63,551 nt of DNA, filler included, from Stramenopiles sp. TOSAG23-6 (GCA_900128565.1; 12 parts of 12 records of this genome joined end to end with filler, not necessarily neighbours in it), one strand, 5' to 3'. Positions 1 to 63,551 are shown, numbered from the whole stretch's first letter. Program-made: numbers and translations. The notes: generated by a model from the sequence alone, not told the origin.

Positions 1-54
1 TACGAAATTTCGTATGAAAAAAAAATTTAAATTAGAAATTCATATAAAACATAC
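1..54 (-). mobile_element. Introner-like intron, 5' part (truncated by window start)
   Basis: TGT|GTATGTTTT...CATACGAAATTTCGTA matches the family 5' half. Confidence 0.8.
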
Positions 55-1477
55 ACAAATAGATGTTGATAACATTAATTTCATAAATTGTTCAATATCA
101 TATTTCTCTAATTTATCTGGCTTTTTTTGTGTATACACAAATGATGGTAAATATGAAGTAAATCCACTTGGAGGTGGACAAAATGTTGTGAAAAACTTTT
201 GATACGTTTCAGGGTATTTTTCAAGTAATTCTTCATCGGCTTTCTGTATTGTGGAAAATATTTTTTTTTTACCGAAAAAAAAAATCGTTAGGTACAAAAT
301 TTCGTACCAAAAAAAAATAAATTTGAAATTCATAATGAAAACGTACATCAACAATATCTTTAGCTGTAGCATATTCATATCGCGTAAGAGGAAACATACT
401 AGACAATGATCTAGCATCTTTATATTCAGTGAAACATCGATTCCATGGAATCATTTTTGTTTTTAATAAAAAGTCAATTGCTTTTTCCATTGACTCTTTA
501 GATATAAAATCATCTTTTTCCATTGACTCTTTAGATATAAAATTATTCTCTTGATTCATCTCTTCTTCATTAACTATGACACCATCAGTCGTATCATCAT
601 TTGTATCATCATCAATTACTGTACCTTCGATATCACTAAATAACTTAAAAATACTTTCAAGTCTTTCTACCGCTGGACCGCTTACAACATGTAGTATGAA
701 AAAATATTTTTTTTTTCGTAAAAAAATCGTTAGGTACAAAATTTGGTACGAAAAAATAAAATTTGAAATTCATGATGAAAAACATACAGATGATAAAAGA
801 ACTAGAAGTAAAACGACATTTAGTTTTTCTTCTGATGTTTTCTGATCTTTCATATCTTTGTGTTCAACTCCACGTTCTAAAAAGCGAATGTTTCTCTCTA
901 TAATATGACCAGCTTTTATACCAGTTGGGAAAATATCGTCAAATTCAGTCATAATATAATGGAAAAACTCATGCGCTGTCGCCAGTCCATTAGATGTCTC
1001 AAATTTCGTTATAACAGATGCGGCAACACGGTCAAATTGATCAGTATTGAAATCATTCAATTCTTTTAGACTTTTCACTTCACTCGGTGCTAGCATACGT
1101 TTACTCCAGAATGTGTTTCGAAATATGTCCCTACGCTCAGATTCCTGGTTCTTTCTGTAAAACCAGTTTCCAATAAGTCCAATGATGCCAAAGAAACCAA
1201 ACATTCCCCAAGGCCAAGAAGACGGATCTACAAGGCGTTCACCCCATGTCGGCTCTTTTCCACTATTTTCAGCTGCTTTACTTGCAACTTGTTTTGAAGA
1301 TGAACAAAGTCTAGCACGTACTGCAAAATATGGTTCTATATTGTATACAGATAAACGCGATGAGTCACGATAGAAATACGTGTGTCGTCTAGAAGCTTTC
1401 GTGATTCCAAGATGAACTTGTCGGAAATATCTCGTCATTACCGCTCGTGGAACAGCTCTACTCAAGAGATGCATCAT
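55..1477 (-). CDS. Hypothetical protein, probably mitochondrial (presequence-like N-terminus, one TM helix); exons 1477-788, 688-347, 243-55; 3' end runs off the window
   Basis: Three ORF-track fragments join in frame (690, 342 and 189 nt exons) once repeat introns are removed; Arg/Ser-rich N-terminus; hydrophobic WGMFGFFGIIGLIGNWFY. Confidence 0.7.
244..346 (-). mobile_element. Introner-like intron, GT...ATAC-AG (canonical end)
   Basis: GAT|GTACGTTTTC...GTACCTAAC...CACAATACAG|AAA GCC, in frame. Confidence 0.9.
689..787 (-). mobile_element. Introner-like intron, GT...CTAC-AT
   Basis: TCT|GTATGTTTTT...CATACTACAT|GTT GTA AGC restores the frame; the next AG is out of frame. Confidence 0.85.
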
Positions 1478-1816
1478 CTCAATTAAATATTATTCGTACT
1501 TAAAACTTTAAAAGTGTTAATTGCCTATGATATCACTTTATGCCGTGCTTTATCGGAAGTAGTAATATGCAACCTTGTGTACGAAACGTGAACAACAAGG
1601 AAAAGCAAAGAATCGCGCTTAATACTATTTTGACTGACACGAAATCCGATTTTTTTTATCCGTTGAAGAAAATTTACCGGAACTCAACTGTCGAAGATGA
1701 AACTTACTTTCTTCAGTTATTCTTATAAAATTCTCACGTCTCCGTTCTCTTCACTCAGAGTGTCTCCAGGGGGTACTACTGTACTAGGTATGGTATAAAG
1801 TGACACTCTTGTTGAA

Positions 1817-4800
1817 ATGGTGAGCTTGCAGTATATTTTTAGACTACTTTTCCTAATTGTATTGCCAGCAATATCGCTGGGAATACAAAGTGAATCTAAA
1901 TGTGTCGCAGCTCAACAGGACAAGGAATTCTATGGCTCGGAACAACTTATTCATTCACAAACTCTGGAGAATGCTGCAGCATGTTGCACACTTTGTTGGG
2001 AATATAGATTACGTAACTGCAGGTTGTGGTCATTTTCTCCAAGTGAATCAACTTGTTCTTTATTTACAGCATTTGCAAAACAAATGTCTACCCAAACTAA
2101 TCGTAGAACTATATCAGGATTTCTATCTATTAATAGTGTCAACCATGCTTCAAATGTATCTCAAGATATAAATTTAGACAAACTTGATACATTCTCATCA
2201 GGTGATTTCATAGTAAGTGCAATAGGATATGTATTTTGGATAGAGCGAATGACTCCACCAATGCTTCACATAATTCCTTCTGCTGCAAATTTTGAGTTGC
2301 ATGATTTACATTGGTCAAAACTTAAAGTTGTAGACGATTCTACTCTCCAAGTATTACTTTTGTATATAATAGGTAATCAAGCTAAAAATACGCTTTCAAT
2401 TGAAGAACTGGTGAATTTTCTTCCATGGTTTCATTCGCCTCTTCTTCCTAGACGATCTCGGATGATTATTGGAAAACCAGTTGCGATTTTTTCAAATATG
2501 ACTATTGATTTTGGTGGTGCGGCAACGGGTTCTTTTTCAGGTGATGGTTTTCATCTATCACGGGGTGTTCCAGGTTCAGTATCGTTATGGTTATGGCCTT
2601 GGGAAGACAATGGCAATCCTTCGCCATCAGGTGAAAGTAAAACAATAAAAGTTGTTGGTCGTTGTATTTTTCAAATGATTACAGAAAGTGGAAATAGTTC
2701 TACACATGATTTTCAGTTAGGTATATACATGGGTATAGCAAATAAAAACCTTGATACTACAAATCGATTATTTATTGCAAATGAAATAGTTGGGCAATCA
2801 TTGAAAGGCTGGTTTGTAGATATACCTTTAGTTGTTAGGCAGTGGAATCATGTTGTAATTAGCCATGGGACATTTAACAATAATAACATGGTAAATGTTT
2901 ATATTAATGGCGAAATTGCGCTTTCAAAAGCTCTTTTGAAACCGGGAAGAGCAAAGGTTGAATATGATCAATATGGAAAGGGTGCAACGGGTGTCAATGA
3001 GAACGAAATTGTGCATAAAAAGGGGCTGCTGCTACGTGTCGAAAATACAAGTAATAATAATAATAGTATACATATGAAAGAGAATAACCCTGTATCAAAT
3101 AGTGGTGTAAATGATAAAAATAGAACAAGTGAAGGGACAAGTTATTGGGGAGATAGGTTTCCATTTATCGTTGGAAAGCGTCCGAATTTTCCTGGAGCGC
3201 ACATACTAGTTAGTCGTTTATGTATTCATCATAACTGGGCGATGAATCAAAAAGATGCAAAGATTGCATTTTCATTAAAAGCGACTCTTGTAGAACCTTT
3301 ACCAGAAACTCTTGTAAGAGCTGCTCGTATATCCACAAAAACTACAGCAGAATATGTGAAACAATCCATCAATAATGAAAAAGTCTCAGCAGAAGCAAAT
3401 GTGAAACAATCCCTCAATAGCGAAAAAAGTACATCAGAAGAAAATGATTCCATTGACGAAAACTTGTACTCTGGTGTACCTTCTTTGTTTGATATTGGTG
3501 TGTCCTTTGCTACAGGTCTACCTGGAGGAATATTGCAACTACGGAAGATTTTAGATTATTCTTCTGAGGGATTAGAAAAAAGTAAAAATGATTATTCATT
3601 AGACGCGCAGAGTGATGATAATTATATATATTCCTTTAATTCTTCAGAATGGAATAATATAGAAAAGAATGCTTCTTTATTTGAAAAGTTATCAGAGTCT
3701 AGACCAAAACATGTGAAGGAACCTATAGCATTTGTGATAGACTTTGGTCAAGGTTTTCAATTGAATACATTGGAAATAAGTTGGATTCGGAGTCCTGAAG
3801 AGTATTCTGTGATTGGTATCAAAGTTGACAATGATAAAGTAGATAGTACTAATAGTAAAGCAAAATACAATTTTGAAAATCCTCTGAATTTATTTGATAT
3901 TGCACAAACCGGGGGAAAAGAGGAAATTGATATTTTTAATAACTTTCCAAAAATATATTTGCGATATGTTTATATATTAATTTCAAACGCAAAAGCACGA
4001 AACAACTTTAATGTAATTTTACGCAGTATAAGTTACCACTCGAGTCATGATGTTGCTGGTAACTCAAACAGAGTAACTGTAAATATGCCATTAAAGAACG
4101 ATGATACAGAATCTAGAAAGCCAACAATACATGATCATCAATCAAATGTAAATGAAATGAGCATTCGTGTAAAGAATGAAATCACCAGTTCAATATTTTC
4201 GCCAAAAACAGGTACATCTTCGAATAATTTGTATGGAGGGCGTTTATCAGATCCAGATAATTTGGCAGAGATATCTTACTTATTAGCTATATTAGCATCA
4301 CCATATACTATTTCTAATATTTCTCTTCCACATAAAATAAATGTATTGCGTATACCAGATGTTCTTGATTGGAAGCCGGATCTGGCAGTGATTCCGCCAG
4401 GAGTGAGATCCTCAGAAGCTGCGGGACTTGCTCTTTCTCATAGACTTTTGAAAAGTTCATATAATATTTTATCCAAAAGCATTTTCAAACATGAAACAGA
4501 TATAAATAACTACAATCAGAATAATTTCAAAACCAATTCATTTCATATGCATGATGAAATACAAGCAAAAATTGGAGTTTCTAAAATAAGTGGAGAAAAT
4601 GAAGCAAGAATTGGAGTTTCAACATCTTCATGTTTTAGATTAGGATTTCAGTATACTGGTGAACCACAGCAAGTTCTCCATAACATTGAGTCTCATTTAC
4701 GTTGTAGAGAAATGTGCCAGAGAAAGACAGGTTGTGCATATTTTGATTATATACAGATGCTTACTAGTAATGACAATGGAGAATGTCGATTATTTGATGA

Positions 4801-7057
4801 TGGAAAACAAGGTACAAGTGTACCATATAATCAGATGCATCAGTCTTCGACATTCTTATTTGAATCAGTTGCCCAATTTCCTATTGTTCAAGGTGATGTA
4901 TTTTGTAACGTTGATACTCGTTGTTATATGTCTTCAGAATTAGTGTCTAGTACTGAACAGACATTGAATGTAAATGAGGATTGCCTGAAAACGAATCTCA
5001 AGATGTGGTCTCTTCAACCAACGCATTCAAATTGCCACGCAGCAGTTGGTTATTTAATAGCTGTACTGAAACCATTATTTAGCGCGAATACTTCGCCACC
5101 ACATCCAAGACCTCCGATTTTATTAGAAAATTTGAACGAAAACTACAGAGGCCTTGCAGGAGAGAATGATCCAGATTTAATGCAGTACCAAATTCATGCT
5201 GCAAGAAATGGTAATATAAACTCACAGATGTGGCTTGCACGTCAATATTATTGGGGGATGGACGGTTTTACTCGCAACCTATCACGTGCGGCACATTACT
5301 ACGAAATGGCTGCAAATGCTGGCAATGCAGAGGCATCATATAATCTTGGTGTTATGCTGAACGATGGATTTTATCAGCCAATAGAAGAAGAAGAAGAAGC
5401 TGAGCGCTCTTCAAATAATCAAATTAGTATTTTAAAAGAATTAAAAATGGCATTGAAAATCATTGCCTTCAATTTAGGATTTAGTGAAATCTTTTCAAAC
5501 GATTTGGGAGGACTTGGAGATGCAGAAGCAGTAGGTGGCGGCGATGCAGGTGGTATAGGTGGTGAAGATATTATGCCTGGTAATAATTCTGGTTACTTTG
5601 GTAAGTTTTGGAATTTGTTTTCTTCTGAAAGAAAAGAAGATAAAAGAGAAGAAATAGAAGCAAATGATAAAGAAAAAAAAAAAGTAATATTTAAAAAAGA
5701 TACAAAAAGAGCAGCTGCATTATTTGAAAAAGCTGGAAAACTTGGCTTTGCACCTGCACTGAATGGTATAGGTGTACAATATCTACATGGTCTTAATGGA
5801 TCTGAAAAAAATATTACTCATGCGATGGAGTTGCTACATAGTGCATCAATACAAGGAAGTGCAGATGCAAACTTTAATCTTGGAACAATATATAGAGATG
5901 GAATTGAAGATGTTTCGCGTAATGAGCTGAAGGCTCTTAAACATTTTGCGTTGGCGGCTGAAGCTGATCATGCAGGATCATTGTTGGAGCTGGGTATCGC
6001 ATATAGCTCTGGTAGTGGTTGGCTTCAAAGAGCAAATGTTGATAAAATTAAGAAACATCGTGAAGAAACTGAAACAAAAGAGTCTCATAGAGATTCAACC
6101 AATGCAAATGTAGCTCCTACAGATACTGGAAAATTGTCAAAAGATGGAGATAAAAATAAAACAGAAAAACAAAATGAAGATCAAATGTACGAAAAATTAA
6201 TGGAGAGTAAAGGATATTTGGTATTACCTCAAACCGATAACAGAGACAAAGCAATAATTCTTCCAACTTGGACTTCATGTGAAACTGCACAGCTATATTT
6301 GAATAAATTAGGTTCAATGGGCGAATCACAAAAAGCGGAAACAAGAGCACTTCAGGGAATTATATTAAATAAAAGAGATTTAGCTCAAAAGTTGTATGAG
6401 AGTGCGGCAGAAATGGGCCAAGTGACGCCACTAATCAATTCTGCTTATATGCGTGAACAAAAAAGGGAAGAAATGGATGGAAGAAATATAAATATGGATG
6501 CACAAAGTGGGGTTGAAATTGAGGAAAATGAGTTGGGTGATATCGTGTTTACAACAATGCAAGCTTCGCAGCAAATTTTTTCTGGTAATATAGCTTTACT
6601 TCATCGCTGGTTTCAAGCAGCACAGTTAGGTTCAATGGATGCTTTAGTAAGATTATCAAATGTGCATTATTATGGTCAATACCTCATGCCTCGGAACGTA
6701 ACTCTATCAAAGGAGTATCTTGATATTGCAAAGTCTCGAGGTCACCCTGAAGCAACATTTAAAATAGCAATGATGGTATTGACTGGACAAGGTGGATTGA
6801 CACAAAATGTAACTGCATCTAGGGAAATATTGGAAATTATTTGTGAAAATTTTGAGAATGAAGCATATTGGCCTTCGCGACTTGTTTTGATGTGGTTGGA
6901 CTTCACTGATTATTTTGCTTACGCTACAATTGAATACTTATGGGAAATATTATCCGGGATTAGGTCAAGAAATGTTGATGTTTTATTGGTATTTCTTTGT
7001 ACTTCTTTAAGTATTGTTTTACTCATATATCAGTGGAGATCTAATCGTAATATATAA
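1817..7057 (+). CDS. Large type I membrane protein: signal peptide, PAN/apple-like domains, LamG/ConA-like domain, Sel1-like repeats (SEL1L/Hrd3-like C-terminus)
   Basis: 1746-aa intronless ORF; CCTLC...C and CREMC...C PAN patterns; WNHVVI...VYING; repeated AxxGxxxAxxNLG Sel1 motifs; C-terminal TM helix. Confidence 0.8.
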   Translation: MVSLQYIFRLLFLIVLPAISLGIQSESKCVAAQQDKEFYGSEQLIHSQTLENAAACCTLCWEYRLRNCRLWSFSPSESTCSLFTAFAKQMSTQTNRRTISGFLSINSVNHASNVSQDINLDKLDTFSSGDFIVSAIGYVFWIERMTPPMLHIIPSAANFELHDLHWSKLKVVDDSTLQVLLLYIIGNQAKNTLSIEELVNFLPWFHSPLLPRRSRMIIGKPVAIFSNMTIDFGGAATGSFSGDGFHLSRGVPGSVSLWLWPWEDNGNPSPSGESKTIKVVGRCIFQMITESGNSSTHDFQLGIYMGIANKNLDTTNRLFIANEIVGQSLKGWFVDIPLVVRQWNHVVISHGTFNNNNMVNVYINGEIALSKALLKPGRAKVEYDQYGKGATGVNENEIVHKKGLLLRVENTSNNNNSIHMKENNPVSNSGVNDKNRTSEGTSYWGDRFPFIVGKRPNFPGAHILVSRLCIHHNWAMNQKDAKIAFSLKATLVEPLPETLVRAARISTKTTAEYVKQSINNEKVSAEANVKQSLNSEKSTSEENDSIDENLYSGVPSLFDIGVSFATGLPGGILQLRKILDYSSEGLEKSKNDYSLDAQSDDNYIYSFNSSEWNNIEKNASLFEKLSESRPKHVKEPIAFVIDFGQGFQLNTLEISWIRSPEEYSVIGIKVDNDKVDSTNSKAKYNFENPLNLFDIAQTGGKEEIDIFNNFPKIYLRYVYILISNAKARNNFNVILRSISYHSSHDVAGNSNRVTVNMPLKNDDTESRKPTIHDHQSNVNEMSIRVKNEITSSIFSPKTGTSSNNLYGGRLSDPDNLAEISYLLAILASPYTISNISLPHKINVLRIPDVLDWKPDLAVIPPGVRSSEAAGLALSHRLLKSSYNILSKSIFKHETDINNYNQNNFKTNSFHMHDEIQAKIGVSKISGENEARIGVSTSSCFRLGFQYTGEPQQVLHNIESHLRCREMCQRKTGCAYFDYIQMLTSNDNGECRLFDDGKQGTSVPYNQMHQSSTFLFESVAQFPIVQGDVFCNVDTRCYMSSELVSSTEQTLNVNEDCLKTNLKMWSLQPTHSNCHAAVGYLIAVLKPLFSANTSPPHPRPPILLENLNENYRGLAGENDPDLMQYQIHAARNGNINSQMWLARQYYWGMDGFTRNLSRAAHYYEMAANAGNAEASYNLGVMLNDGFYQPIEEEEEAERSSNNQISILKELKMALKIIAFNLGFSEIFSNDLGGLGDAEAVGGGDAGGIGGEDIMPGNNSGYFGKFWNLFSSERKEDKREEIEANDKEKKKVIFKKDTKRAAALFEKAGKLGFAPALNGIGVQYLHGLNGSEKNITHAMELLHSASIQGSADANFNLGTIYRDGIEDVSRNELKALKHFALAAEADHAGSLLELGIAYSSGSGWLQRANVDKIKKHREETETKESHRDSTNANVAPTDTGKLSKDGDKNKTEKQNEDQMYEKLMESKGYLVLPQTDNRDKAIILPTWTSCETAQLYLNKLGSMGESQKAETRALQGIILNKRDLAQKLYESAAEMGQVTPLINSAYMREQKREEMDGRNINMDAQSGVEIEENELGDIVFTTMQASQQIFSGNIALLHRWFQAAQLGSMDALVRLSNVHYYGQYLMPRNVTLSKEYLDIAKSRGHPEATFKIAMMVLTGQGGLTQNVTASREILEIICENFENEAYWPSRLVLMWLDFTDYFAYATIEYLWEILSGIRSRNVDVLLVFLCTSLSIVLLIYQWRSNRNI

Positions 7058-7077: not shown

Positions 7078-7968
7078 TTAGACAAACACTATTTTTTTCT
7101 TTGTTATGTTGACACTTGATTTTTTAGATGGCTCAGAGGATGACAAACTTGCCTTTGCAATTACAACAGATGGTTCCATCAATGGGTATGTATACTTTTC
7201 ACTCATTACAGTAGATTCGGTATCAACATGGCCATTGCTAGCAATGTGTTTTTGTTTTGGTGAAAAACTTGCAATTGATGATTTTGTAGTTTTCATCAAC
7301 TCCTTCATTTGACGTTGCATTGTCTCACGCATATCCTTTAATTCGCGTTCTTTTTCTTCTTGTGTTTGCGGTCCTTTTTCATAATTTTCGGATGTATCTT
7401 CAGTAGAAGCTGAATGAGAGGCGTATTTATACGAAATACTATCATCTTCCCAAGGACTGACTAATGACGTTTCTCTATTTGATGTTTCATCTTTTCTTTG
7501 ATTTTGTTGCTTTGATAGTATATTAGATTTTTTATGATGTTTAGGATCCCTACGACTTAGTTTTGTTTCAAGTTTGACTTTTGAAAACTCCTTTGTCTTT
7601 GTAGGCACATGCCTTGGAGACATTTCTGAAGCCTCAGCCCATTGCACTGATACATTTTTACCCATTGTCTCTTTCGATGATGAAACAATAGTTTTTGCTG
7701 TAGGTATTGTTCCTGTGGCTGAAGGTACAGTACCAAAGGATATACATCGATCTAAAAGTATTATTCGTGTTGGAAAAGTTGTACTTATTAAAACACGGAA
7801 CACTCTTCAATGTATGTCCCACCTCCTTCAAATTCTGTATCCGAGTTAAGTAAAATATTGAATGACAATATTGTTCCATCACGGTGAATACCACATATAT
7901 AATAAAAAAATATTTTTTTTTTTTTACCGAAAATAAAACAAAAATTGTTAGGTACAAAATTTTCTACC

Positions 7969-7999
<31 letters not shown>

Positions 8000-8156
8000 T
8001 ATGATGATGAAAACGTACATGATCTTTTTGCATTTACATTTGTTGTGTTTTTTCTATTATTTTCTTCTGGAACTTCATATTTTACAAAAAATAAATCTCG
8101 AAATTGAAATGAATTAATATCAAACGCATGACGATGTGCCATTTTTTGAAATACAC
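7078..8156 (-). CDS. Fe(II)/2OG dioxygenase-like fragment followed by a low-complexity region; 5' truncated; frame break near 7790
   Basis: DLFFVKYE...RSCGIHRDGTILSFNILLN...FEGGGT after removing intron 7895-8018; link to ORF 7078-7803 unresolved. Confidence 0.55.
7895..8018 (-). mobile_element. Introner-like intron, GT...ATAT-AT, with an internal (AT)n expansion
   Basis: TCA T|GTACGTTTTC...TTATATAT|GT GGT ATT CAC gives RSCGIHRD. Confidence 0.85.
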
Positions 8157-8226
8157 GAGTATATATTATGAAAAAATATTTCAAAAAAAAAAACTTAAAT
8201 TTGTTAGGTACAAAATTTCGTACGAA
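8157..8226 (-). mobile_element. Introner-like intron, 3' half at a contig end
   Basis: TTCGTACGAAATTTTGTACCTAAC...AAATATTTTTTCATAATATATAC; exact acceptor not determinable. Confidence 0.75.
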
Positions 8227-13794: not shown

Positions 13795-15216
13795 TTATTT
13801 TTGGAGAGAGGATTTCGATTCAGTTCTACTTTTTTTCCTGGGTCGATTCGTATCATAGCAATCATCCGTTTCTGAAAATGGAGCTACTTGATTTAGTTTC
13901 ACAGTTAATTTCTCTGTAGCACAAGTTTGTATTTTTGTATGCTGTAATTCGGGTGATGGATGAAAAGATTTCATTAATTGAAATACTTCAGAGCGCACAT
14001 CCTTCGTCGTAATTTTACACTTTTCAAAATCGAAGCTGAAACATTTCGTTGCGGTAGGCTCGTCTTCAGGGCAGTGTAAACTCTGCAGGTATTCATGACA
14101 CAAGGCTTCATTCACTGTAATTCTGCGCTGGGGATCAAATACTAATAACTTTTTCAATAGATCTAGTGCTAAAGGGTTTGCAGTAGGATATAAAATATCT
14201 AATGGAACTTTCTCACAATATGGTAAATTTTTCATAAATTTCTTTGCTTTCTCATTTTTGATGAAATCCATATCCTCAGCGGTTGGAGATCCGAGTTTAC
14301 GTGAAATAAGTTGAAGTTGATTAATGTAGTCATTCCCTGGAAATATAGGCAATCTGCCTAGGCATTCCGCAAAAATACAACCTACAGACCAAATATCTAT
14401 TGCGCTAGAATATTGTTGACAAGAAAGCATGATCTCTGGCGCACGGTACCATCGCGTGACTACATACTCGGTCAAATCTGAAGGCTCGTCTGTACCCCTT
14501 GATAAACCAAAATCGCAAATCTTCAAGTCACAGTTTGCATTTAATAAAATATTTGAAGGCTTCAAGTCACGGTGCAAAACTTTCGCCGAGTGCATATATT
14601 TGAGCCCTCGCAGTATCTGATATATAAAGTATTGAGCATGGTCATCTGTTAATGATTGCTTCGAATATATAATGCGATGTAAATCTGTTTCCATTAACGG
14701 TGATACTAAATAAACATCTTTGAATGATTCTATTGAACTTGTCTTCGGCGGTTGTATATCAATTAAGCTCATCAAATTATCATGCTTAAAATGCATTAGT
14801 AACTTAATCTCCCGGAGAACTCGTTTAGCATAATATAGATCATCAAATGGGTGTGGAATCTTCTTTACTGCAACCTTATTTCCTGTGATGGTGTCAACGC
14901 ACGAAATCACAAACCCATAACCCCCAAGTCCAATTACTTTAATTAGTTCATATCGCTTGTCCAATTCAAACTTAGTTCCATCTACACGAATTGTATTTAA
15001 AGAAACCATATTATCCAAACTACTAGAACTACACGGACTTTGTACAAAACTTAATTTTATCGAACTCGGTGTTTCACTCCCAATCTCCACTGCCCCAGTT
15101 GGCAATACTACTCCACGATTGCTTAAAGTATTCTGGTCTTCCTCGAGCGAGTTTGACGTACTCTCACCAAAATAAGAACTTGTCTTAACTTCTTCATTTC
15201 TTTCTAAGGCGCTCAT
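13795..15216 (-). CDS. Mitogen-activated protein kinase (TEY activation loop)
   Basis: GLGGYG, VAVKK, HRDLKPSN, DFG, TEYVVTRWYRAPE; intronless. Confidence 0.95.
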   Translation of the reverse strand: MSALERNEEVKTSSYFGESTSNSLEEDQNTLSNRGVVLPTGAVEIGSETPSSIKLSFVQSPCSSSSLDNMVSLNTIRVDGTKFELDKRYELIKVIGLGGYGFVISCVDTITGNKVAVKKIPHPFDDLYYAKRVLREIKLLMHFKHDNLMSLIDIQPPKTSSIESFKDVYLVSPLMETDLHRIIYSKQSLTDDHAQYFIYQILRGLKYMHSAKVLHRDLKPSNILLNANCDLKICDFGLSRGTDEPSDLTEYVVTRWYRAPEIMLSCQQYSSAIDIWSVGCIFAECLGRLPIFPGNDYINQLQLISRKLGSPTAEDMDFIKNEKAKKFMKNLPYCEKVPLDILYPTANPLALDLLKKLLVFDPQRRITVNEALCHEYLQSLHCPEDEPTATKCFSFDFEKCKITTKDVRSEVFQLMKSFHPSPELQHTKIQTCATEKLTVKLNQVAPFSETDDCYDTNRPRKKSRTESKSSLQK

Positions 15217-49302: not shown

Positions 49303-49390
49303 GTACGTTTTATTTTTGTCAATTTCGAATTTATTTTTCGTACGAAATTTTGTACCTAACGATTTTTTTTTGAAATATTTTTCCAAAATA
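49303..49390 (+). mobile_element. Introner-like intron cut at a contig end
   Basis: GTACGTTTT...TTCGTACGAAATTTTGTACCTAAC...TTCCAAAATA. Confidence 0.85.
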
Positions 49391-49517: not shown

Positions 49518-52500
49518 CTAATCTATGCTACTAGAACTTTCATCAAAATCATCATCATAAATTAAGCCAGGTAAAAAAAGTTTAACTTTTGATATTTCAT
49601 CAATGGTCAAATGAATCTTTTGTATAGTGGCAACCTGAAGTTCTTTAATCGCATTCATTGTATTATGCATTTCAACCATTGCCGTATTCGTTTGTGTTTC
49701 TATTTGTTTCATAGTTTTACTTACTAAACGTATTTGTGTAATATCTACACCACTACCTATTATAATTTTATGCTTTTCAGGAATAATACTACATTTCATG
49801 TCAAATTCCCATTTCTTTAACAAAAAATCAGATGGAAAAGTTATTTCTTGTAATTCTCTAAATATACGTTCTGCTTCTGAAAATGCAGTTCCATCAATCA
49901 TCGCTAATAATTCTGGATCTGCATTTATATATTCAGCTAATTGTCTTTCATATATGTATGGAAAATGTATTAGAACTTCATAAGACTGCCTCCATTTTTT
50001 TAATTTACTTTTTAATTTACTTAATGAAATACGACGCGTATTTCTGTTAAGTAATAAATTTCGAATAAAAATAGCTTTACTTTTCACAAAATTGATAATT
50101 GTATGAAGAATCGTGGCTATTAGATTTCCATTCCTTATTTGTTTCATTAAGCTTTTAAGAAGCCGTTTAGAAGTTGACGATCGTATCAACGTACCAATCT
50201 TTCCTTCATTGTAAATAAATCGGTATTTTTTCCAATTTGCAATCATATAACAAGAAATAATACAAACCAAAAAATATCTAAATACAATGATATACGAAAT
50301 GAAATAAAGAAATAATACTGAAACTGTATTATCATTCATATTTTTTTCATCTTTCAAATGTAGAAAAATATTATTATTTAAGATGCCTAAGCTAAGATTA
50401 GAAATTGTTGCAGAAAGAGTTGAAAATCTATGCGAATTAAAAACAAAGCAAAAGTATCCAAATACAGTAAATGCTGCAAAAATTGATCCTATAGTAAACA
50501 TAATTGTTATAATTTCTTTCCATGATTTGACTAAAATATGCACAAATGTCCTAAGAAAATCAGAATAGGGTGTATATTTCAATACACGGAATGTCAAAAG
50601 TAGAATAACAAATGATAATCGTAAATGTTGACGTTCAATAGCATCAAAAGCAGTTTCCATATCTTGATAATTGTTCATTGTGAAGGCTTGTCTTAGTTTT
50701 TCATCCATATTTAATGTGTGAAGATCCCAATGAAAGGCTAATTCTTGAACTACATACACGGTAATAAATACAGCTATATCATAAAAGGCAAATATAATTT
50801 CATAATAGAATTCTGTAGTTTGTTTTCGCCAATCGAGTATTTCTCTCCTTGACTGATATACTGTAAGTATCGACAATGTGATTAAAGGGAGCACCAGAAA
50901 AAAACGTACAATAATATTTGAAGTATTTAAATGAAGCAATGAATCATTTGTTGGTGTCAGCCAAGCAATGTTTGCATTCCAATGAGGAACAACTAAACCT
51001 TCAGGTCCAATTTCAAACCAAACTTTAACAAGACATAAAGCATGAGCATCATGAATGTAATAAGTGATTTTGAAAAATATTGCTCGTGTTGCTAGTCCTA
51101 AGAAGTGTTTCAAATCTCCAATTTCAGCTTTGATTTGTTCAGCGGATTTATCATACCGTAAAGTATGTAAAAATCCTGAACCATCATATGTAGCATAGAG
51201 TCCATCTGATGACATTGCATCTGTTTCTGTAGACCGGAACCAATTGTATTCACATCTATAATCTCGTGCATTACTACTTTTGTAAGTTTCATGCACAGTA
51301 TGAATAAGTTTATAACATTCCAGCTGACGATGTTCCTCCTTTAAATCCTTCGATGCAATGTATCCACATGTTTCTGTGTTTTTAATATTTTTATTATGCA
51401 AATCACAATGATTAATATCAACATAACACCACACTTGATCACAAGTTTGATCTCTAGCAGCATTTAATTCACCAGTCGTTTGGTTCAAACAATTTGTTGA
51501 GTCTAATATATTGTAATTAAAGCACCCTTGATAACCCAATTCGTCTGACTCTTTGATAATACATTTACAAGATGGATTTTCAACATACCGACAAACACCG
51601 AAAACTTCATTTATTTTTTCACTTGCACCATTACAAACCCCACCATTTGGTGCACAATCATTTGTTGTGACACAATTTAAATCCACTGAAATACTACACT
51701 TTCCAATGACAGGGTCTACAGCAGGTTTATATCCAATACATTGTTTTTCACTTGGTGTTAGTATATAGTGAGATCTTTTAATACAATCATTTGTAGTTCT
51801 ACATCCTACAACACAAATTCCATACGTTGCACCTGTTTTTTTTATACAATTTGATAATTTATTTCTCAGTAGTCCCTGTTCTGATGTACAATCTGAATCT
51901 TTCGTACAAGAAATTTTACATACTTTATTTGTAGTTGTTGTTGCTGGATTTTCTGATACACAACTTCCGATACCACACTCGGCTGGACTAACACACTGTG
52001 TTTTGTTAGCATTATCTGCAATTATGTCTGAATTAGTTCCTATAATATTAGTTTTCACTCGACTAATTCCTCCAAATTCTTCAAGATTGGCAACATTATA
52101 ACTATACCTAGGAAAGTTCTGATTACTTAGTCGTACTGGGCGTTTGATTGGTTTATTTCTATCATTTATTACAGTTCCAAAATAATTTTGGGTTGTTTCA
52201 TCCTGAGGCATTTTTTGCACACGTACTTGACGAACTCGAACTCCCCACATTCCAATCATTCCATTTTTATTTTCTTTGTCTTCCTGCTTTTCATTTTGGG
52301 TATGAAATAATTCTGGGACAATGATTTCTTCTACATATGCCCAAATATTAGGGATTATATCAACTTTTTCCAAGGTCAAATTTTCACTACCTTGGTGTTC
52401 CGTGGTAAAGGGAGCATATCTCAACATCTTTTCTACACGATCAATTATAAGAAATTTTTCGGCAGGACGTACAGTATCAACGATTGCAATAATACTAGAA

Positions 52501-52649
52501 ACCAAAGCAATTACATAGAAAAGTATATCAAGTCGTCTCAAACGTAACTTTTGTGTTTTATCAAACCACTTGTCAAAGTCGTCGAGACCAATCATTCCAA
52601 CGTCTTCAAGAGAATCAACAGACTCTAACACGGAACTTTGGGTACTCAT
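49518..52649 (-). CDS. Polycystin-2 (PKD2/TRPP)-like channel with a Cys-rich extracellular insertion
   Basis: GVRVRQVRV, YDGSGF, TRAIFF..TYY, FE..P.G TOP-domain motifs; 6TM region with FRVLKY and FSTL. Confidence 0.85.
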   Translation of the reverse strand: MSTQSSVLESVDSLEDVGMIGLDDFDKWFDKTQKLRLRRLDILFYVIALVSSIIAIVDTVRPAEKFLIIDRVEKMLRYAPFTTEHQGSENLTLEKVDIIPNIWAYVEEIIVPELFHTQNEKQEDKENKNGMIGMWGVRVRQVRVQKMPQDETTQNYFGTVINDRNKPIKRPVRLSNQNFPRYSYNVANLEEFGGISRVKTNIIGTNSDIIADNANKTQCVSPAECGIGSCVSENPATTTTNKVCKISCTKDSDCTSEQGLLRNKLSNCIKKTGATYGICVVGCRTTNDCIKRSHYILTPSEKQCIGYKPAVDPVIGKCSISVDLNCVTTNDCAPNGGVCNGASEKINEVFGVCRYVENPSCKCIIKESDELGYQGCFNYNILDSTNCLNQTTGELNAARDQTCDQVWCYVDINHCDLHNKNIKNTETCGYIASKDLKEEHRQLECYKLIHTVHETYKSSNARDYRCEYNWFRSTETDAMSSDGLYATYDGSGFLHTLRYDKSAEQIKAEIGDLKHFLGLATRAIFFKITYYIHDAHALCLVKVWFEIGPEGLVVPHWNANIAWLTPTNDSLLHLNTSNIIVRFFLVLPLITLSILTVYQSRREILDWRKQTTEFYYEIIFAFYDIAVFITVYVVQELAFHWDLHTLNMDEKLRQAFTMNNYQDMETAFDAIERQHLRLSFVILLLTFRVLKYTPYSDFLRTFVHILVKSWKEIITIMFTIGSIFAAFTVFGYFCFVFNSHRFSTLSATISNLSLGILNNNIFLHLKDEKNMNDNTVSVLFLYFISYIIVFRYFLVCIISCYMIANWKKYRFIYNEGKIGTLIRSSTSKRLLKSLMKQIRNGNLIATILHTIINFVKSKAIFIRNLLLNRNTRRISLSKLKSKLKKWRQSYEVLIHFPYIYERQLAEYINADPELLAMIDGTAFSEAERIFRELQEITFPSDFLLKKWEFDMKCSIIPEKHKIIIGSGVDITQIRLVSKTMKQIETQTNTAMVEMHNTMNAIKELQVATIQKIHLTIDEISKVKLFLPGLIYDDDFDESSSSID

Positions 52650-53208
52650 TTCAAATATAAAGCGTTTAAGATTTTTTCATACTTCAAGTGTAAGAGGAAA
52701 GTCAAATGTCAATCAATTGCAAAGTTTTAGGCTTTGAAGAAAGAAGATGAGAGAGGAGGAGGAGGAGAGGAGGAGGAGGAGAGAGTGTTGTTGTTTCAAA
52801 ATTTCAAATTGAAATAATAATCTCCGCCCGGAGCGGGAAAAAAAAGATAAATTGCAAATTGGAATTATTTTGCGATTTTGTAATTTGAAATTTGAAATTT
52901 TGAATTTATTTTCTGTTTTTGACGACTAATGTCTCATTCATCAATTGGCCATACTATAATATGCTTTGAATATAACTACCTAATTGACGAATCGTGTACT
53001 ATATGGAAATACTGCACACACAATGAAAAATTGAATATTAATAGAAAGAAAAAAGTTTCAATTTTATTTCTCTTTTTTCCAGTTCTATTTGAATATCATA
53101 ATATATCAACCCACTGAACATCTTTCATAAATTTTTATCGCCTTTACGAAGACAAATTGAAACGATATTGATGGATTTGTGAGTGTTTATTCCACACACG
53201 TAACTTAT

Positions 53209-53958: not shown

Positions 53959-54084
53959 ACTCCCGGAGATTTTCAATTTCCGTTTCGTCTTTTTATCAAT
54001 TATTTACATAATACATNCCAATCTTTTTCTCATCTACATAAAAAAGCAAGTTCTTTTATTGTTTGAACATTCAACGNCATTCAA

Positions 54085-56202
54085 ATGAAAATCCAACCAG
54101 AGAGTACATCTGGTAATAGTGCAAATGCATATTTACTACAATCCAAAGTAGCCGAACATGGAGTAGTAGCTATAAAAGAAGAAAAAACTTCATTGGAAGA
54201 GGCTCGAGAAGAGTCTGACGCTCGTTTGTTACAACAGGCAAAAGAGATGAATTCTACTAATTCTACGAATAAACAAGAACTTAAGCAAGGACCTATGGGT
54301 ACTTCAACGAACGCAATGCCCAAAGGTCAATATTTTATAAATCCATATTCAGATTTTATGAAAAAATGGGACAATTTCATTATGATATTATTATTATTTA
54401 CCGCTGCTGTTACTCCTTTTGAAGTTGCTTTNATGGGTGAAACAAGAGTAGATTTATTATTTTTTGTGAATAGAATTGTTGATTTAGGTTTCACAGTGGA
54501 TATGTTTTTTCAATTTAATCTTGGATTTCCAGATCCTGAAACAAATGAAATCATTTATCATCATGGCGCAATTGCACATCGATACTTAACAACGTGGTTT
54601 TTGATAGATTTTGTATCAATTTTACCATTTGATATTGTAGCAATGAATATTAATACAGAAGATATGGATGTATCTCAATTAAAGATTGTTCGTACAATTC
54701 GTTTGTTGAGATTGATTAAGTTGTTGCGTGTGNTGAGGTCATCAAGAATATTAAAAAGAATTGAACATTCTTTAGGTTGGTCCTTTGTCACATTTGCTTT
54801 AATTAAATTTGTTATTGCATTATTTGTTACGATGCATTGGGTTGCATGTATTTGGGGTATATGTCCATCAATGTCATCATCCGCATTAAATTGGTATACA
54901 GAATTTGGTATGGAATATGCAACTACAGGAGATCGTTATGCTGCTGCTGTAGAATTTGCTATGATGTCATTTGTTGTAGGATATGGATCATTTACACCAA
55001 CTACGACAGGTGAACGTGTTGTTGCTTTATTCTGTATGTTTTTATCAGGTAGTATATACGCTTATATTATTGGTGCAATATGTCAGGCAGTGTCGATGAG
55101 AGATCCAGGAACTCAAAAATTTCATCAAACTATGGATTTATTAAATATGTACATGACAGAAATCAGAATGCCACCAGATGATCGAATTCGTATGAGAGAA
55201 TTTGTACATAATTGTAAAGGTTTACAAAGACAAGAATTTTATCAAGAAGTTCTTCGAGTCTTATCACCAAAATTACAGGGTGAATTTGCAATGCGTACAA
55301 CAGGTCAATGGATTGAACAAGTTCCATTTTTTTGTTGTGACGAAACAGAAGAGAGAAGGCGATTTGTAGTTGATGTTGCATTAACGTTAAGTCGTAGAGC
55401 ATATACTCGTGGTGAAATTTTATTTAAGATAAATGAAACAGCAGATTTGATGTTTATAGTTGCTCAAGGTGTGATTGGTGCAAAAGGNAGTATACTTCGA
55501 TCAGGTGATTTTGTNGGCGAAGATATGATTATGCAGANTGGTCTACGTACGTATAGAGCAACGGCAATGACATTTGTTGATACGCAAACACTTTCAAGAG
55601 ATAACTTATTTAGAGTATTAGAAAGAGGTGATTTTCCTGAAACAGAAAAANTAATTCATATTGCAGCACTTCGATTAGCAATCAAAAGATACTTTAAAAA
55701 ATTGGTGACTACTATACAGTCGGGTNATGCTTTCGCAAGCAAGAAAAAAATGACGGAAGAAGAAATTTCAGAGTGGAAACTTCAAATGAAAAAAAAATCA
55801 TCAGAAAAGTCATTATTGGCTTCTCCACTAGGAAAAAGAAAAAAACAGAAAGAAGAAAAAACAGAAAGTGATGAAAAAGTACATGCAGATCCAATTCGAT
55901 CTTGTTTACAAGAATCAATTACAAAAGAAGTAGACTTAAATTCTTTATTACAAAAGCTTGAAAATATGTCCCGTGGAATAAAGCTTTTACAATCTGCAGT
56001 TACAGCTACTGCACAAAATATCCATGAATTACAGTCTGATTTTAGTACACATTTAGGTATTGGAAAAGATACAAGAAATGTTGAGTCTAGAAAATATCCA
56101 GAAATTAATGGTGATGATGAAAGTTGGAGNCCATCAACACCAAATATACAAAATATCGATATTTTGGAAGATTTGAAAGAGGGTATTTCACGTCGTATTT
56201 AA
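54085..56202 (+). CDS. Cyclic-nucleotide-binding-domain voltage-gated K+ channel (EAG/HCN-like)
   Basis: S4 RTIRLLRLIKLLR, pore VGYGS, C-linker, CNBD GD.xGE...RTYRATA. Confidence 0.92.
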   Translation: MKIQPESTSGNSANAYLLQSKVAEHGVVAIKEEKTSLEEAREESDARLLQQAKEMNSTNSTNKQELKQGPMGTSTNAMPKGQYFINPYSDFMKKWDNFIMILLLFTAAVTPFEVAXMGETRVDLLFFVNRIVDLGFTVDMFFQFNLGFPDPETNEIIYHHGAIAHRYLTTWFLIDFVSILPFDIVAMNINTEDMDVSQLKIVRTIRLLRLIKLLRVXRSSRILKRIEHSLGWSFVTFALIKFVIALFVTMHWVACIWGICPSMSSSALNWYTEFGMEYATTGDRYAAAVEFAMMSFVVGYGSFTPTTTGERVVALFCMFLSGSIYAYIIGAICQAVSMRDPGTQKFHQTMDLLNMYMTEIRMPPDDRIRMREFVHNCKGLQRQEFYQEVLRVLSPKLQGEFAMRTTGQWIEQVPFFCCDETEERRRFVVDVALTLSRRAYTRGEILFKINETADLMFIVAQGVIGAKXSILRSGDFXGEDMIMQXGLRTYRATAMTFVDTQTLSRDNLFRVLERGDFPETEKXIHIAALRLAIKRYFKKLVTTIQSGXAFASKKKMTEEEISEWKLQMKKKSSEKSLLASPLGKRKKQKEEKTESDEKVHADPIRSCLQESITKEVDLNSLLQKLENMSRGIKLLQSAVTATAQNIHELQSDFSTHLGIGKDTRNVESRKYPEINGDDESWXPSTPNIQNIDILEDLKEGISRRI

Positions 56203-58729: not shown

Positions 58730-58772
<43 letters not shown>

Positions 58773-61770: not shown

Positions 61771-62459
61771 AACACTGATTGCGGCTTTGAGTTACCCGTT
61801 ACATGAACCCTAAACCGCACTCCACCCTCCGCTGCCATCACTTTCGTCTGACCATCTTCGTAAAGCCTTTCGTCCCCGTATATATTGTAATCCTCAAACG
61901 ACTCCATTGATGCGCACAATGATTAAACAATCCAAAGATAACAAAAGCTGGTGAAAAGACACTTTCCTCAAGTGCAATTATCTGGCTTCATGTGCAATTT
62001 CCGCTTTGCAATGTGTAAAACAGATCGCAATAAAAGATCGCAATAAAATATTATATTAATATATAATTATATAAAATTAATTAATAATAAAAAAAACATA
62101 ATAAAAAAAAATAATATTATTATTTTGAAAAGAGAAAAGAGAAGAAGAAGGTGTAACGGATAACAACAGTGGTGGGTGGGTGATTGTAAAATTATTATAA
62201 TATAATTTACTTATTAAAAAATATAATTCTTGGTATATTTTTTTAGGTAAAATTATACCATTATACCTACTATAACTACTATCAACTAAACCATTCAACA
62301 AAAAGTACTGACTTTTTTATTTACTAATTAACAAGCTCAACAAGCAATAAAACGATTTGNNNNNNNNNNNNNNNNNNNNNNNNNNNNNNNNNNNNNNNNN
62401 NNNTTAATTAATTAANNNNNNNNNNNNNNNNNNNNNNNNNNNNNNNNNNNNNNNNNNNN

Positions 62460-63528
62460 CCTCATGAAAACGCCATTGAAGAACTTCGGAAACTGCAAAT
62501 ATTAAAGACGTCATCAGATGATCCAGATACTGTATGGCTTCATAAAAGTTTTCAAGTACAGTTGAAAACAGCTGTAAGTGAGTTGTGCACACCATGGCAA
62601 CCTGTGACAGAAGTTCAAGACGGAGAAGCAAAAATTCCTACAGAGGCATCTCTCATGGAAATGGCAACAAAGAAGTGGGATGCCGTTTTGCATTATTTGG
62701 TTGGCTCGTGGGACTCATGCGAGAGGAAACGAGTAAAAATTCAAAGAAAGACGAAATATCAACAAGTAAAGGTAAAGGTAAAGGAGGAGTAAAATTAACA
62801 GTAACAGTGAGACGTGCTGCACTTGACAAAGAATCTTCTTTATCATCTATGAAATCTGGTGGTCGAGGACCCCGTTTGATTATAACACATAAAAATGAAA
62901 CCATCACATCTGCAGGATATGAATTTTTGCTTCAAGAAACTAATGCTCAAATTTGGAGATTTTTAAAACGTTATTTTCAAGTATTAAATGGTAGAGATGC
63001 AGATATGGCATCTGCCATTAGTTTAGTGTTTAGGCTAGGATTTTGTGAATTAGGAAAAGGATATCAAACACAATCTTTGTCTCCTACTCAGTTCTCCATG
63101 CTTTCACATTTATCCGATTTTGGTCTAGTTCATATCCAAGATGTCAACGTTCATGGGGAGGGCAAATATCGCGGGAAAATTGGTTTAGTTCGTTGTTTTT
63201 ATCCAACACCTTTCGGTATAAATCTTTTAACAAATCATACTCTACAATCGAATGTACGTTTTCATCATGAATTTCGGAATAATTTTTTTTTCGTACGAAA
63301 TTTTGTACCTAACGATTTTTTTTTCATGTGAATATAGATATAAATGATTCATCGATAACTCGTACTACTTCTCAAACGAGATGCCATTTATTTGTGGAGA
63401 CGAACTTTCGAATATATGCATATACTACATCAGACCTTCATGTGTACATGTTAAAATTATTTGCTAATTTGTTATATCGACTTCCCAATATGGTTTTAGC
63501 GGTGATAAATAGAAAGTCCGCGACTTAT
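62460..63528 (+). CDS. TFB2: TFIIH subunit p52/Tfb2, partial; frame break near 62710; intron 63254-63339
   Basis: WDAVLHYLVG, ITSAGYEFLLQ, DFGLV, FYPT, FVETNFRIYAYT, LPNMV. Confidence 0.9.
63254..63339 (+). mobile_element. Introner-like intron, GT...ATAG-AT
   Basis: AAT|GTACGTTTTC...GAATATAGAT|ATA AAT; splicing at the AG gives ATA TAA (stop). Confidence 0.82.
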
Positions 63529-63551
63529 GTATGTTTTCATCATTCATTTCA
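63529..63551 (+). mobile_element. Introner-like intron, 5' end at the window edge
   Basis: TAT|GTATGTTTTCATCAT. Confidence 0.7.

Follow-up and report, generated by a model that had tools for sequence, protein, structure and literature searches.

The window analysed here, that is, the whole stretch of 63,551 nucleotides from Stramenopiles sp. TOSAG23-6 (GCA_900128565.1), consists of 12 contigs (seven measuring 8.1–8.2 kb, the other five 1,092 bp each) that are linked through spacers of the form N44-TTAATTAATTAA-N44. It is AT-rich eukaryotic DNA (GC content approximately 0.33), in which the long open reading frames (ORFs) are open with the standard stop codons and the products are eukaryotic proteins: a Sel1/PAN protein, a protein kinase, an Na+/H+ exchanger, a cap methyltransferase, a fusion of FG-GAP and animal haem peroxidase, a TauD-family oxygenase, an AAA ATPase, a MACPF protein, a polycystin-type channel, a cyclic-nucleotide-binding channel, Tfb2, BTB and ankyrin proteins, and a copia-like retroelement. 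A family of short repeats, whose complete copies measure 88–122 nt, interrupts many of these genes, and is very likely an introner-like mobile intron family (Table 1).

When the exchanger gene (27013–29144) was compared with known proteins, P0001 was identical by eye wherever both have sequence, and its source label hints at a MAST-3-like stramenopile; the next-best match was P0002 (68% identity), followed by oomycete, dinoflagellate, and diatom proteins. Sequence words of contig 6 were present in three polyA metatranscriptomes (12–17% of the sampled words) and in three seawater metagenomes (42–56%). Rfam and tRNA scans of the window gave no matches, and hence no clues from small nuclear RNAs.

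Copy number, orientation, and distribution

The 21-nt core of the repeat, GTACNAAATTTNGTACCTAAC, was found 37 times in the window with three or fewer mismatches, against no match in 100 shuffled controls; many loci count twice in this search because the core is palindromic. A profile made from 16 copies and run against the window with nhmmer reported 60 hits up to E = 10. These included 26 sense-strand copies at E < 0.01 and two more at contig ends (E = 0.64), which by eye begin with the first bases of the family (GTACGTTTTATT and GTATGTTTTCATC), and one antisense fragment of 43 nt; the remaining hits were mirror matches of the central palindrome, or noise. The total is 28 copies, spread over at least 12 genes, of which eight are truncated by contig ends. 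All 28 are in the sense orientation with respect to the surrounding ORFs, and the 17 complete copies fall in phases 0, 1, and 2 in eight, four, and five cases, respectively.

The copies are clustered. Five are in the peroxidase fusion, four each in the AAA and MACPF genes, and three in an unnamed gene of contig 1; two each are in the gene at 7790–8226 (its last exon has an H-x-D...GGGT motif that by eye resembles that of 2-oxoglutarate oxygenases), the gene ending contig 2, and the TauD and Tfb2 genes, and one each in the exchanger gene, the methyltransferase gene, and two unnamed genes. Meanwhile, five ORFs of 1.4–5.3 kb (1799–7057, 13795–15216, 30768–33020, 49518–52676, and 54067–56202) contain none, nor does the final 3 kb of the MACPF ORF. 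No copy at E < 0.01 was found by nhmmer in the 9,547 bases outside ORFs of at least 100 codons, approximately 15% of the non-N bases.

A first-pass annotation, made from the sequence alone, had described about 28 copies of 86–124 nt, all sense to the host gene and in all three phases, clustered in the FG-GAP/peroxidase, MACPF, and AAA genes and missing from genes of 1.4–5 kb. The profile search of the window returned the same picture, the exact limits of length differing slightly. Its count of six contig ends inside a copy holds for the strong cases, the total being 8 of 24 ends when the two weak copies are included. It had also attributed nearly all introns to the family; one clear intron of the AAA gene (41634–41758) does not belong to it.

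The sole antisense match (37012–37054, plus strand, E = 1.2e-5) is a 43-nt stretch of the family's central part within a minus-strand exon of the peroxidase fusion, where it is translated in frame as ...MLGTEFDIKKTKK...; it may be an exonised piece of the element, or a chance match. The start-to-start spacing of the copies was 147, 231, and 227 nt in the MACPF gene (43682–44376) and, with the non-family intron included, 146, 184, 150, and 244 nt in the AAA gene (41287–42088), which is roughly the scale of the nucleosome repeat. Algal introners were reportedly found to insert at nucleosome-repeat spacing, in work ascribed to Huff et al. 2016. In outside collections, the core motif gave nine matches to metagenome contigs, none of them a family member on inspection, no match to viral contigs, and five single matches in prokaryote genomes, all in bacterial records by title. 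A regular-expression scan of the window for further GTAYGT...CTAAC introns was too noisy for use.

Table 1. Copies of the repeat family, and one non-family intron, in the window. Flanks are given as the exon dinucleotide just 5' of the intron / the terminal dinucleotide of the intron; a slash in a protein sequence marks the junction. E-values are from nhmmer.
Position	Strand	Feature	Length (nt)	Phase	Flanks	Remarks
1–54	-	Copy, 5' part, truncated by contig start				Begins GTATGTTTTA; E = 6.4e-4
244–346	-	Complete copy	103	0	AT/AG	AG end
689–787	-	Complete copy	99	0	CT/AT	
7897–8018	-	Complete copy	122	1	AT/AT	3' end set by frame
8157–8226	-	Copy, 3' part, truncated by contig end				E = 1.7e-8
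16231–16324	+	Complete copy	94	2	AT/AT	
16437–16490	+	Copy, 5' part, truncated by contig end				E = 6.4e-8
27695–27789	+	Complete copy, Na+/H+ exchanger gene	95	1	TG/AT	Junction codon GGT (Gly)
33073–33161	-	Copy, cap methyltransferase gene				Last bases lost at contig start
34933–35023	-	Complete copy	91	1	AT/AT	3' end set by frame
35277–35375	-	Complete copy, now a GT-AG intron	99	0		Junction RGRDH/GLQ
37269–37366	-	Degenerate complete copy	98	0	TT/TT	E = 3.8e-8
37806–37903	-	Complete copy	98	2	AT/AT	
38819–38907	-	Complete copy	89	2	AT/AT	
40947–41051	+	Complete copy, TauD-family gene	105	2	TT/TT	
41122–41186	+	Copy, 5' part, truncated by contig end				Begins GTACGTTTTATT; weak, E = 0.64
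41287–41364	-	Copy, AAA gene, truncated by contig start				E = 4.2e-12
41513–41608	-	Complete copy, AAA gene	96	0	CT/AT	Junction SKWT/GGSEK; Pfam AAA positions continuous
41634–41758	-	Non-family intron, AAA gene				No match to family profile; frame and Pfam spacing kept only with a non-AG end
41830–41942	-	Degenerate family copy, canonical GT-AG intron in P-loop				Junction GPP/GTGKT; E = 9.8e-5
42038–42088	-	Half copy, 3' half only				Starts at inner GTACCTAAC; E = 1.3e-3, model positions 55–107
43682–43769	+	Complete copy, MACPF intron A	88	0	AT/AT	
43829–43923	+	Complete copy, MACPF intron B	95	2	TT/AT	
44060–44153	+	Complete copy, MACPF intron C	94	0	GT/GT	
44287–44376	+	Complete copy, MACPF intron D	90	1	TA/TT	Not slidable
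47587–47678	-	Complete copy, GG for GT at start			AT/AT	Frame ambiguous
49303–49390	+	Copy truncated by contig end just ahead of last bases				E = 5.1e-14
63254–63327	+	Copy, Tfb2 gene, shortened 3' part				3' end uncertain, nearest AG out of frame; E = 7.3e-18
63529–63551	+	Copy, first 23 nt, truncated by contig end				Begins GTATGTTTTCATC; weak, E = 0.64

Sequence conservation and age of the copies

In a global alignment of the 17 complete copies, pairwise identity from end to end averaged 0.71 (range, 0.54–0.88). The consensus reads GTACG-TTTTCAt.AT.aAtTT.aaa..T9.cGTAc.AAATTTTGTACCTAACgAtTTTttt...aaaaAAAAtATTTTTTcAcAATACAT, which corresponds to a unit of approximately 90–100 bp with the layout GTACGTTTTCA..ATGAATTTCAAA..T-run..CGTACGAAATTTTGTACCTAAC..T-run/A-run..ATATTTTTTCACAATAC. 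Each copy starts with GTAYGT, carries the near-invariant TACCTAAC, and closes with the terminal CACAATAC plus two bases, the family consensus terminating in ATACAT. The best-conserved blocks of the alignment are the GTAYGT 5' splice site and the near-invariant UACCUAAC, and the 3' half occurs in two variants (...ACTAAAAAAAATATTTTTTCACAATAC and ...TTTGAAATATTTTTCCAAAATAC). Each unit has four GTAC tetranucleotides, one at either end and two within the central palindrome TTTCGTACGAAATTTTGTAC; that they form a protein-binding site is speculation. There is no inverted terminal repeat beyond GTAC/ATAC, and the opposite-strand matches of the profile cover the central palindrome only. Beyond the 5' site, branch motif, and homopolymer tracts, the copies also have blocks such as TTTTCAtcATGAATTTCAAA, CGTACGAAATTTTGTAC, and ATATTTTTTCACAATAC in common. 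The similarity therefore extends beyond splice signals plus low-complexity sequence, the explanation that the first-pass annotation had named as fatal to its reading.

No pair of copies is more than 88% identical. The insertions are therefore not very recent, and the burst of intron gain that had been suggested is not demonstrated. At the same time, the exons beside the copies are open for up to 1,012 and 649 codons and have conserved motifs at the very junctions. Because these exons have stayed open and their junction motifs have been kept although the copies have diverged by 12–46%, the host genes have been under selection since the insertions, which is our main argument that the elements are removed exactly from the mRNA.

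The putative removed piece: reading frames and junction homology

Each copy was anchored at its first G and at the C of its final ATAC, and the removed length that joins the longest open frames was sought. Initially, removal of the element and 2 nt more was the only way to keep the frame in 12 of 16 copies. The exceptions were the copies at 7897–8018 and 34933–35023, in which the element end had been misjudged, the GT-AG copy at 35277–35375, and the ambiguous copy at 47587–47678. As the first two ends were then set by the frame, they do not constitute independent support.

The last two intron bases of the 16 copies were AT in 11, TT in three, GT in one, and AG in one. The following base was G in 10 of 16 and the third-last intron base mostly C, giving a typical end of CAT before G, as against CAG before G in ordinary introns. 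The copies had been assumed to be ordinary introns, and the lack of AG at most of their ends had gone unnoticed. GT is present at the 5' end of 15 of the 16 copies, but the canonical U2-type pattern (GT or GC at the start, AG at the end) is not kept at the 3' side: the frame-restoring site has AG in 1 of 16, and a non-AG boundary is needed in the other 15 tallied copies (one further complete copy, at 35277–35375, has an AG end). A usable AG end exists in only three copies, namely, one of those tallied and the two converted copies at 35277–35375 and 41830–41942. In 6 of 17 copies, no more than expected by chance, the GT is in frame with the first AG lying at least 8 nt past the branch motif.

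Reading frames alone do not discriminate between explanations, and homology at the junctions was therefore examined. In the AAA protein, Pfam AAA positions 8–28, 29–39, and 40–84 follow one another across two introns with no residue missing or extra. The exon GTGKT...ACP corresponds to profile positions 8–28 (extrapolated to 31), the eight-residue exon ADLLSKWT fills positions 32–39, and the exon GGSEK..., aligned from position 41 at its second residue, takes position 40 with its first G. As this spacing is exact, neither the family intron at 41513–41608 nor the non-family intron at 41634–41758 can leave or take a residue, and the use of an AG in the former would delete GGSEK. The non-family intron starts with GTAGGT and ends …CACAATTTATAT/AG…, its last bases resembling the 3' motif of the family; the adjoining AG shifts the frame, and the only in-frame GT-AG alternative loses two residues. 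At the TauD junction (...VVPAL/RIDKRSGRKMFFN), in a stretch that we take to be a conserved motif, the next AG lies 8 nt further on and leads to TTA TAA, an immediate stop. The exchanger, with the element and two bases removed, showed no gap relative to its closest homologues, and at MACPF junctions C and D there was no gap at the junction itself relative to P0121 and P0123. Thus, to judge from the frames, the continuity of the Pfam AAA match, the spacing of the homologues, and the junction residues, removal of the element plus two bases restores the coding sequence.

Two other ways of removing the element were considered and rejected. Removal from TA to TA, as in the internal eliminated sequences of ciliates, leaves two extra residues and is excluded by the Pfam AAA spacing. 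A donor GTAC/GT with an acceptor CACAG/, as in the public gene model of the exchanger, is possible in two copies only, and adds three residues where the closest homologues are free of gaps.

Apparent two-base duplication at the insertion site

In 10 of 16 copies, the exon dinucleotide just ahead of the intron was identical to the dinucleotide that closes it (permutation p = 0.008), and base by base the flanking dinucleotides agreed at 25 of 32 positions (p = 0.004). Without the two copies placed by frame, the flanks matched in 8 of 14 (p = 0.016). The matching flanks include TT/TT twice and GT/GT once, and the 3' dinucleotides that are neither AT nor AG (TT, TT, GT, and TT) face TT, TT, GT, and TA on the 5' side. 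Four copies have a non-AT 5' flank with an AT 3' end, and two have an AG 3' end; drift of the intronic copy towards AT or AG would fit such unequal flanks. In these counts, the flanking two bases behave like a 2-bp target-site duplication.

Where the flanking dinucleotides are equal, an intron read as GT...NN and one read as NN GT...AC yield identical mRNA. Unequal flanks within protein that can be aligned occur in two copies, those of the exchanger (TG/AT) and of MACPF junction D (TA/TT), the latter not slidable. At the exchanger junction, the GT...AT reading gives Gly, the residue of 24 of the 59 homologues, including 9 of the 10 closest, whereas the shifted reading gives Cys, found in 1 of 59. 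At MACPF junction D, the GT...TT reading gives D-T-N, as in P0123 (P0121 has D-T-H, sharing the Thr), and the shifted reading gives D-S-N. Both family introns that have become GT-AG introns (35277–35375 and 41830–41942) start at /GTACG. The junction residues and these starts therefore indicate that the introns run from GTAYGT to two bases past ...ATAC. With the boundaries drawn in this way, the assignment of GT...non-AG ends is probable, at a lower level of confidence than the family itself.

Interpretation and alternative explanations

The introner-like interpretation of the first-pass annotation is borne out by a single family that aligns over its full length and interrupts at least 12 genes, at positions unrelated to one another, always in the sense orientation and in all phases, and whose removal restores the frames. 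In our preferred reading, which we consider likely, these transposon-like elements of a marine heterotrophic eukaryote have been copied into transcribed genes, supply their own 5' splice site and branch site, and have their 3' cut set by position. We infer from the sequence splicing itself, the exact cut sites, the machinery, and the spread as DNA; the case for splicing rests on the orientation, the intact host ORFs, and the divergence of the copies from each other by 12–46%.

The proposed course of events is as follows. Insertion into a transcribed gene would duplicate two target bases, usually AT and usually before G. In the sense orientation, the first six bases would then form a strong 5' splice site (GUAYGU, of the U1/U6 type), and the near-invariant UACCUAAC, perhaps together with the conserved 3' motif UUCACAAUAC, would provide the branch site. 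The RNA would be cut 34–51 nt past the branch A, directly behind the duplicated dinucleotide, so that the element and one copy of the duplicate are removed and the mRNA is restored exactly. A few old copies would later have acquired an AG and come to look like ordinary introns.

The branch A lies 34–51 nt ahead of the putative 3' end, with no AG in between in the consensus. Because AG is far rarer as the terminal dinucleotide than AT, TT, or GT, the 3' cut appears to be set by position and not by an AG. The putative cut also keeps a constant position with respect to the conserved ...TTCACAATAC, regardless of which two bases come next, and the 3' site therefore seems to be measured and not read. 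Three ways of achieving this can be imagined. A second branch-like motif in TTCACAAT, approximately 9 nt before the end, may fix the cut by its distance, which would be comparable to the short fixed spacing between branch site and 3' end in U12-type introns. Alternatively, docking may occur through pairing of intron positions +1 to +4 (GUAC) with -6 to -3 (GUAC/AUAC). Such GUAC end pairing appeared in the minimum-energy folds of about one third of the copies in RNAfold; the z-scores ranged from -3.1 to +1.5, end pairing reached 4–6 bp in some copies only, and no consistent or significant structure was found. Finally, the second splicing step may accept U as the last base.

Several observations weigh against this interpretation. 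Frame restoration alone would follow from any insertion that duplicates 2 bp, spliced or not, and the duplication test rests on only 16 copies, with AT frequent at the two flanks alike. For a U2-type spliceosome, 3' ends other than AG would be highly atypical. The apparent two-base duplication points to a DNA transposon, but the total bias towards genes and the sense strand and the lack of inverted repeats point to an RNA route, and no transposase was found among the window proteins. A search of MACPF exon 3 against longer proteins and a word search with the large MACPF exon gave no match, and no transcript-derived protein spanning a junction was found, the exchanger search yielding only the poor gene model P0001 and homologues. 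At MACPF junction A, the homologues are four residues shorter, so that this junction is uninformative. Two copies also depart from the pattern. The half copy at 42038–42088 is out of frame when the element plus two bases is removed; to keep the frame, the intron has to end 4 nt earlier (…CCAAAAT), and the spacing in other AAA proteins would likewise put the end four bases back, at an AT. The half copy is probably a deletion derivative. In the copy at 47587–47678, GGAGGT replaces GTAYGT; this may be a dead intron that now supplies a C-terminus.

Apart from their frames, these two copies showed further features. The half copy directly follows coding sequence and shares 94% identity with the corresponding segment of another copy (8161–8213), and the host ORF continues for 24 codons into the copy at 47587–47678.

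The most serious alternative, which we nevertheless regard as unlikely, accepts the same family and the same introns but supposes that they spread as RNA: an excised intron would reverse-splice into a transcript, a DNA copy of which would recombine into the gene, the terminal AT being part of the element and the AT just upstream an insertion preference. Such a route has been suggested for the introner-like elements of fungi. This would suit the 28 genic and sense copies of 28, their absence from approximately 9.5 kb of non-ORF sequence, the lack of an inverted terminal repeat, and the ATACAT end of the family consensus; a source of reverse transcriptase is also at hand in the copia-like ORF (17253–24092, RVT_2). 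Reverse splicing, however, gives no duplication, whereas the 3' dinucleotides TT, TT, GT, and TT are matched, fully or by half, by TT, TT, GT, and TA on the 5' side.

A further alternative, which we consider improbable, is that the removed piece is shifted by two bases, from the dinucleotide before GTAYGT to the final AC (making half of the copies AT-AC), or that a minor, U12-like spliceosome tolerates odd 3' ends. AT-AC is a known pair, and the AT/AT copies (8 of 16) give the same mRNA under both readings. In addition, GTAYGTTTT fits the U12-type 5' consensus RTATCCTTT at 6–7 of 9 positions, and CCTAAC resembles TCCTTAAC. Nonetheless, with the shift the exchanger should have Cys and the MACPF protein Ser, where homologues have Gly and Thr, and the shifted reading requires introns to start with TG, CT, TT, or TA. 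U12-type introns have the 5' motif RTATCCTT and the branch motif TCCTTAAC approximately 10–26 nt from the 3' end; in the family, the 5' sequence is GTAYGTTTT, lacking the key CC at +5/+6, and the branch motif is 34–51 nt from the 3' end.

It is very improbable that the copies are plain insertions of a non-autonomous transposon without precise splicing, the genes being disrupted or trimmed, or that they are excised at the DNA level like the eliminated sequences of ciliates. Although removal of the element and the duplication would restore the frame in any such case, and although most copies lack an AG, one starts with GG, and one is a half copy, a chance of ~4e-9 attaches to 28 of 28 sense copies (28 coin tosses), and exons open for up to 1,012 codons, with their junction motifs conserved, would not be expected beside copies that have diverged by 12–46%. 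DNA-level removal needs no orientation, and the two extra residues left by TA-to-TA excision conflict with the AAA profile. Least credible of all is that these are ordinary old introns of an intron-poor genome, alike through strict splice signals and AT-rich filler: GTAYGT and CTAAC are expected in such genomes and T- and A-runs do form part of the element, but the alignment refutes the idea with its three blocks outside signals and runs, as do profile E-values down to 1e-22, the matching flanking dinucleotides, and the 8 of 24 contig ends inside copies, as for a high-copy repeat.

Beyond the window, the positional 3' cut suggests a wider proposal, on which we are evenly divided: that in this stramenopile lineage most introns are transposon-born GT...AT introns (also GT...TT and GT...GT), in which the 3' cut falls at a fixed place behind a motif of the element, so that any 2-bp target gives a working intron without an AG and later drift to AG is a path to an ordinary intron. 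Introners are the best-supported source of new introns, and nearly all described families obey the GT-AG rule; here, the 3' intron end seems to derive from the target site and in most copies is something other than AG. Should RNA data bear this out, the spliceosome, or some other machinery, would pick the 3' site by position in a lineage of common marine grazers, and intron-generating transposons would demand even less of their target than was thought.

Gene annotation may also be affected, as annotation tools usually force GT-AG. The public gene model P0001 places GT-AG boundaries around the element (donor GGTAC/GT, acceptor CACAG/TAC), adding three residues, and also drops two conserved membrane stretches that the 68%-identical P0002 keeps. 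As this model is distorted around the element, the protein sets of the lineage may be damaged wherever the family sits, and with 28 copies in 62 kb, such damage could reach most genes.

Other features of the window

The contig at 16591–24741 is entirely copia-like retroelement, with a single minus-strand ORF of 2,279 codons (17253–24092) containing an RVT_2 domain, and its first 55 nt equal its last 55 nt, as with two long terminal repeats collapsed into a circular assembly path. In-frame repeats occur in several coding sequences: the MACPF gene has approximately 16 tandem PEGKAGE-like units (43174–43585) and a PPEEK-like repeat (45567–45731), the peroxidase gene a 48-nt duplication (35143–35238), and the methyltransferase ORF 12-nt repeats (33468–33632). 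The 1,092-bp contig at 57692–58783, with 25% GC and long T and A runs, gave two weak partial matches to the centre of the family (E = 0.05–2), which may be decayed copies, or merely low complexity. Between two divergent genes, a 28-nt sequence at 48413–48440 (plus strand), GTACGTATACAATTAATTTTTTTTTCAG, resembles a tiny canonical intron, possibly in a 5' untranslated region.

Comparison with known systems

Introners are said to have been described in the marine algae Micromonas and Aureococcus by Huff et al. 2016, and introner-like elements in fungi by van der Burgt et al. 2012. Like the family in the window, the fungal elements have a strong bias towards genes and no inverted repeats; unlike it, they are canonical GT-AG introns without target duplication. 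Introners are now established and common in marine protists (PMC9860276; PMC12130899), and the first of these surveys also describes the fungal introner-like elements and reports target duplications and/or terminal inverted repeats in ~59% of the introner families in which both could be determined (PMC9860276). As described there, an introner of the Chrysochromulina type brings its own 5' splice site, whereas the 3' site is provided by a target duplication of 4 bp (Gozashti et al. 2022, PMC9860276). Among the designs described in these sources, this is the closest to the present family: a short non-coding element occurs in many genes, in the sense orientation and in all phases, with an apparent target duplication, a 5' site from the element, and putative removal of the element with one duplicate. 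In contrast to the 4-bp duplication of the Chrysochromulina type, the apparent duplication in the window is 2 bp, usually AT, and supplies no AG (AT, TT, or GT in 15 of 16 copies), and any inverted repeat is no longer than 4 nt.

Other systems share the unusual boundaries. The introner elements of Amoebophrya are reported to have 8–20 nt inverted repeats that pair the ends and 3–5 nt direct repeats, with no constant terminal dinucleotides or 5' site (Farhat et al. 2021, PMC7789003). They resemble the present family as repeated introns of a marine protist whose ends are non-canonical and whose borders with the exons are spanned by short direct repeats, but the window family has a canonical conserved 5' site and branch motif, end pairing of at most 4–6 bp, and a 2-nt repeat. 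For the gain of U12-type introns in Physarum, a transposon with a 2-bp duplication has been proposed, and GT-AT ends occur (bioRxiv 10.1101/2020.10.12.336362). The apparent 2-bp target duplication, the frame-keeping removal, and the putative tolerance of 3' ends beyond AG and AC, including GT-AT, are shared with that model, whereas the Physarum introns, as presented there, have a U12-type 5' motif and a branch site 9–12 nt from the 3' end, in contrast to GTAYGT and a conserved branch motif 34–51 nt away. The nonconventional introns of euglenids and some diplonemids (PMC12501133, PMC12621601, PMC6221363) likewise have non-GT-AG borders that can slide by means of short direct repeats, and a transposon origin is suspected; according to these accounts, however, they have no U1-complementary 5' ends and rely on extended end pairing (CAG...CTG signature), whereas the window family keeps GTAYGT and CTAAC and has no significant fold. 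No feature of the window suggests a diplonemid. The extended pairing of the euglenozoan and Amoebophrya introns is thus not seen here, the RNAfold end pairing being 4–6 bp in some copies and GTAYGT being conserved. Nor does the family resemble miniature inverted-repeat transposable elements, of which only the apparent 2-bp duplication fits, without terminal inverted repeats of ~10 nt or more and without antisense or intergenic copies, or the internal eliminated sequences of ciliates, given that the AAA spacing excludes TA-to-TA removal and all copies are sense.

No literature linking introners to MAST lineages was found: the main texts of the two surveys contain neither "MAST" nor "stramenopil", although their supplements may list families by genome (PMC9860276, PMC12130899). 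In its main text, a paper on single-cell genomes of MAST lineages refers to introns in the methods only (PMC5778133), and the MAST-3 genome paper does not mention introns (PMC12614181). Both surveys began from annotated introns, and that of 2025 dropped families with unfamiliar splice sites that had no RNA support (PMC12130899), so that a family such as this one could be missed. Relative to the systems compared here, as far as they are described in the sources cited, what is new is the combination: the 5' site and branch motif are canonical and conserved, whereas the 3' end, not AG, would come from an apparent duplication of 2 bp.

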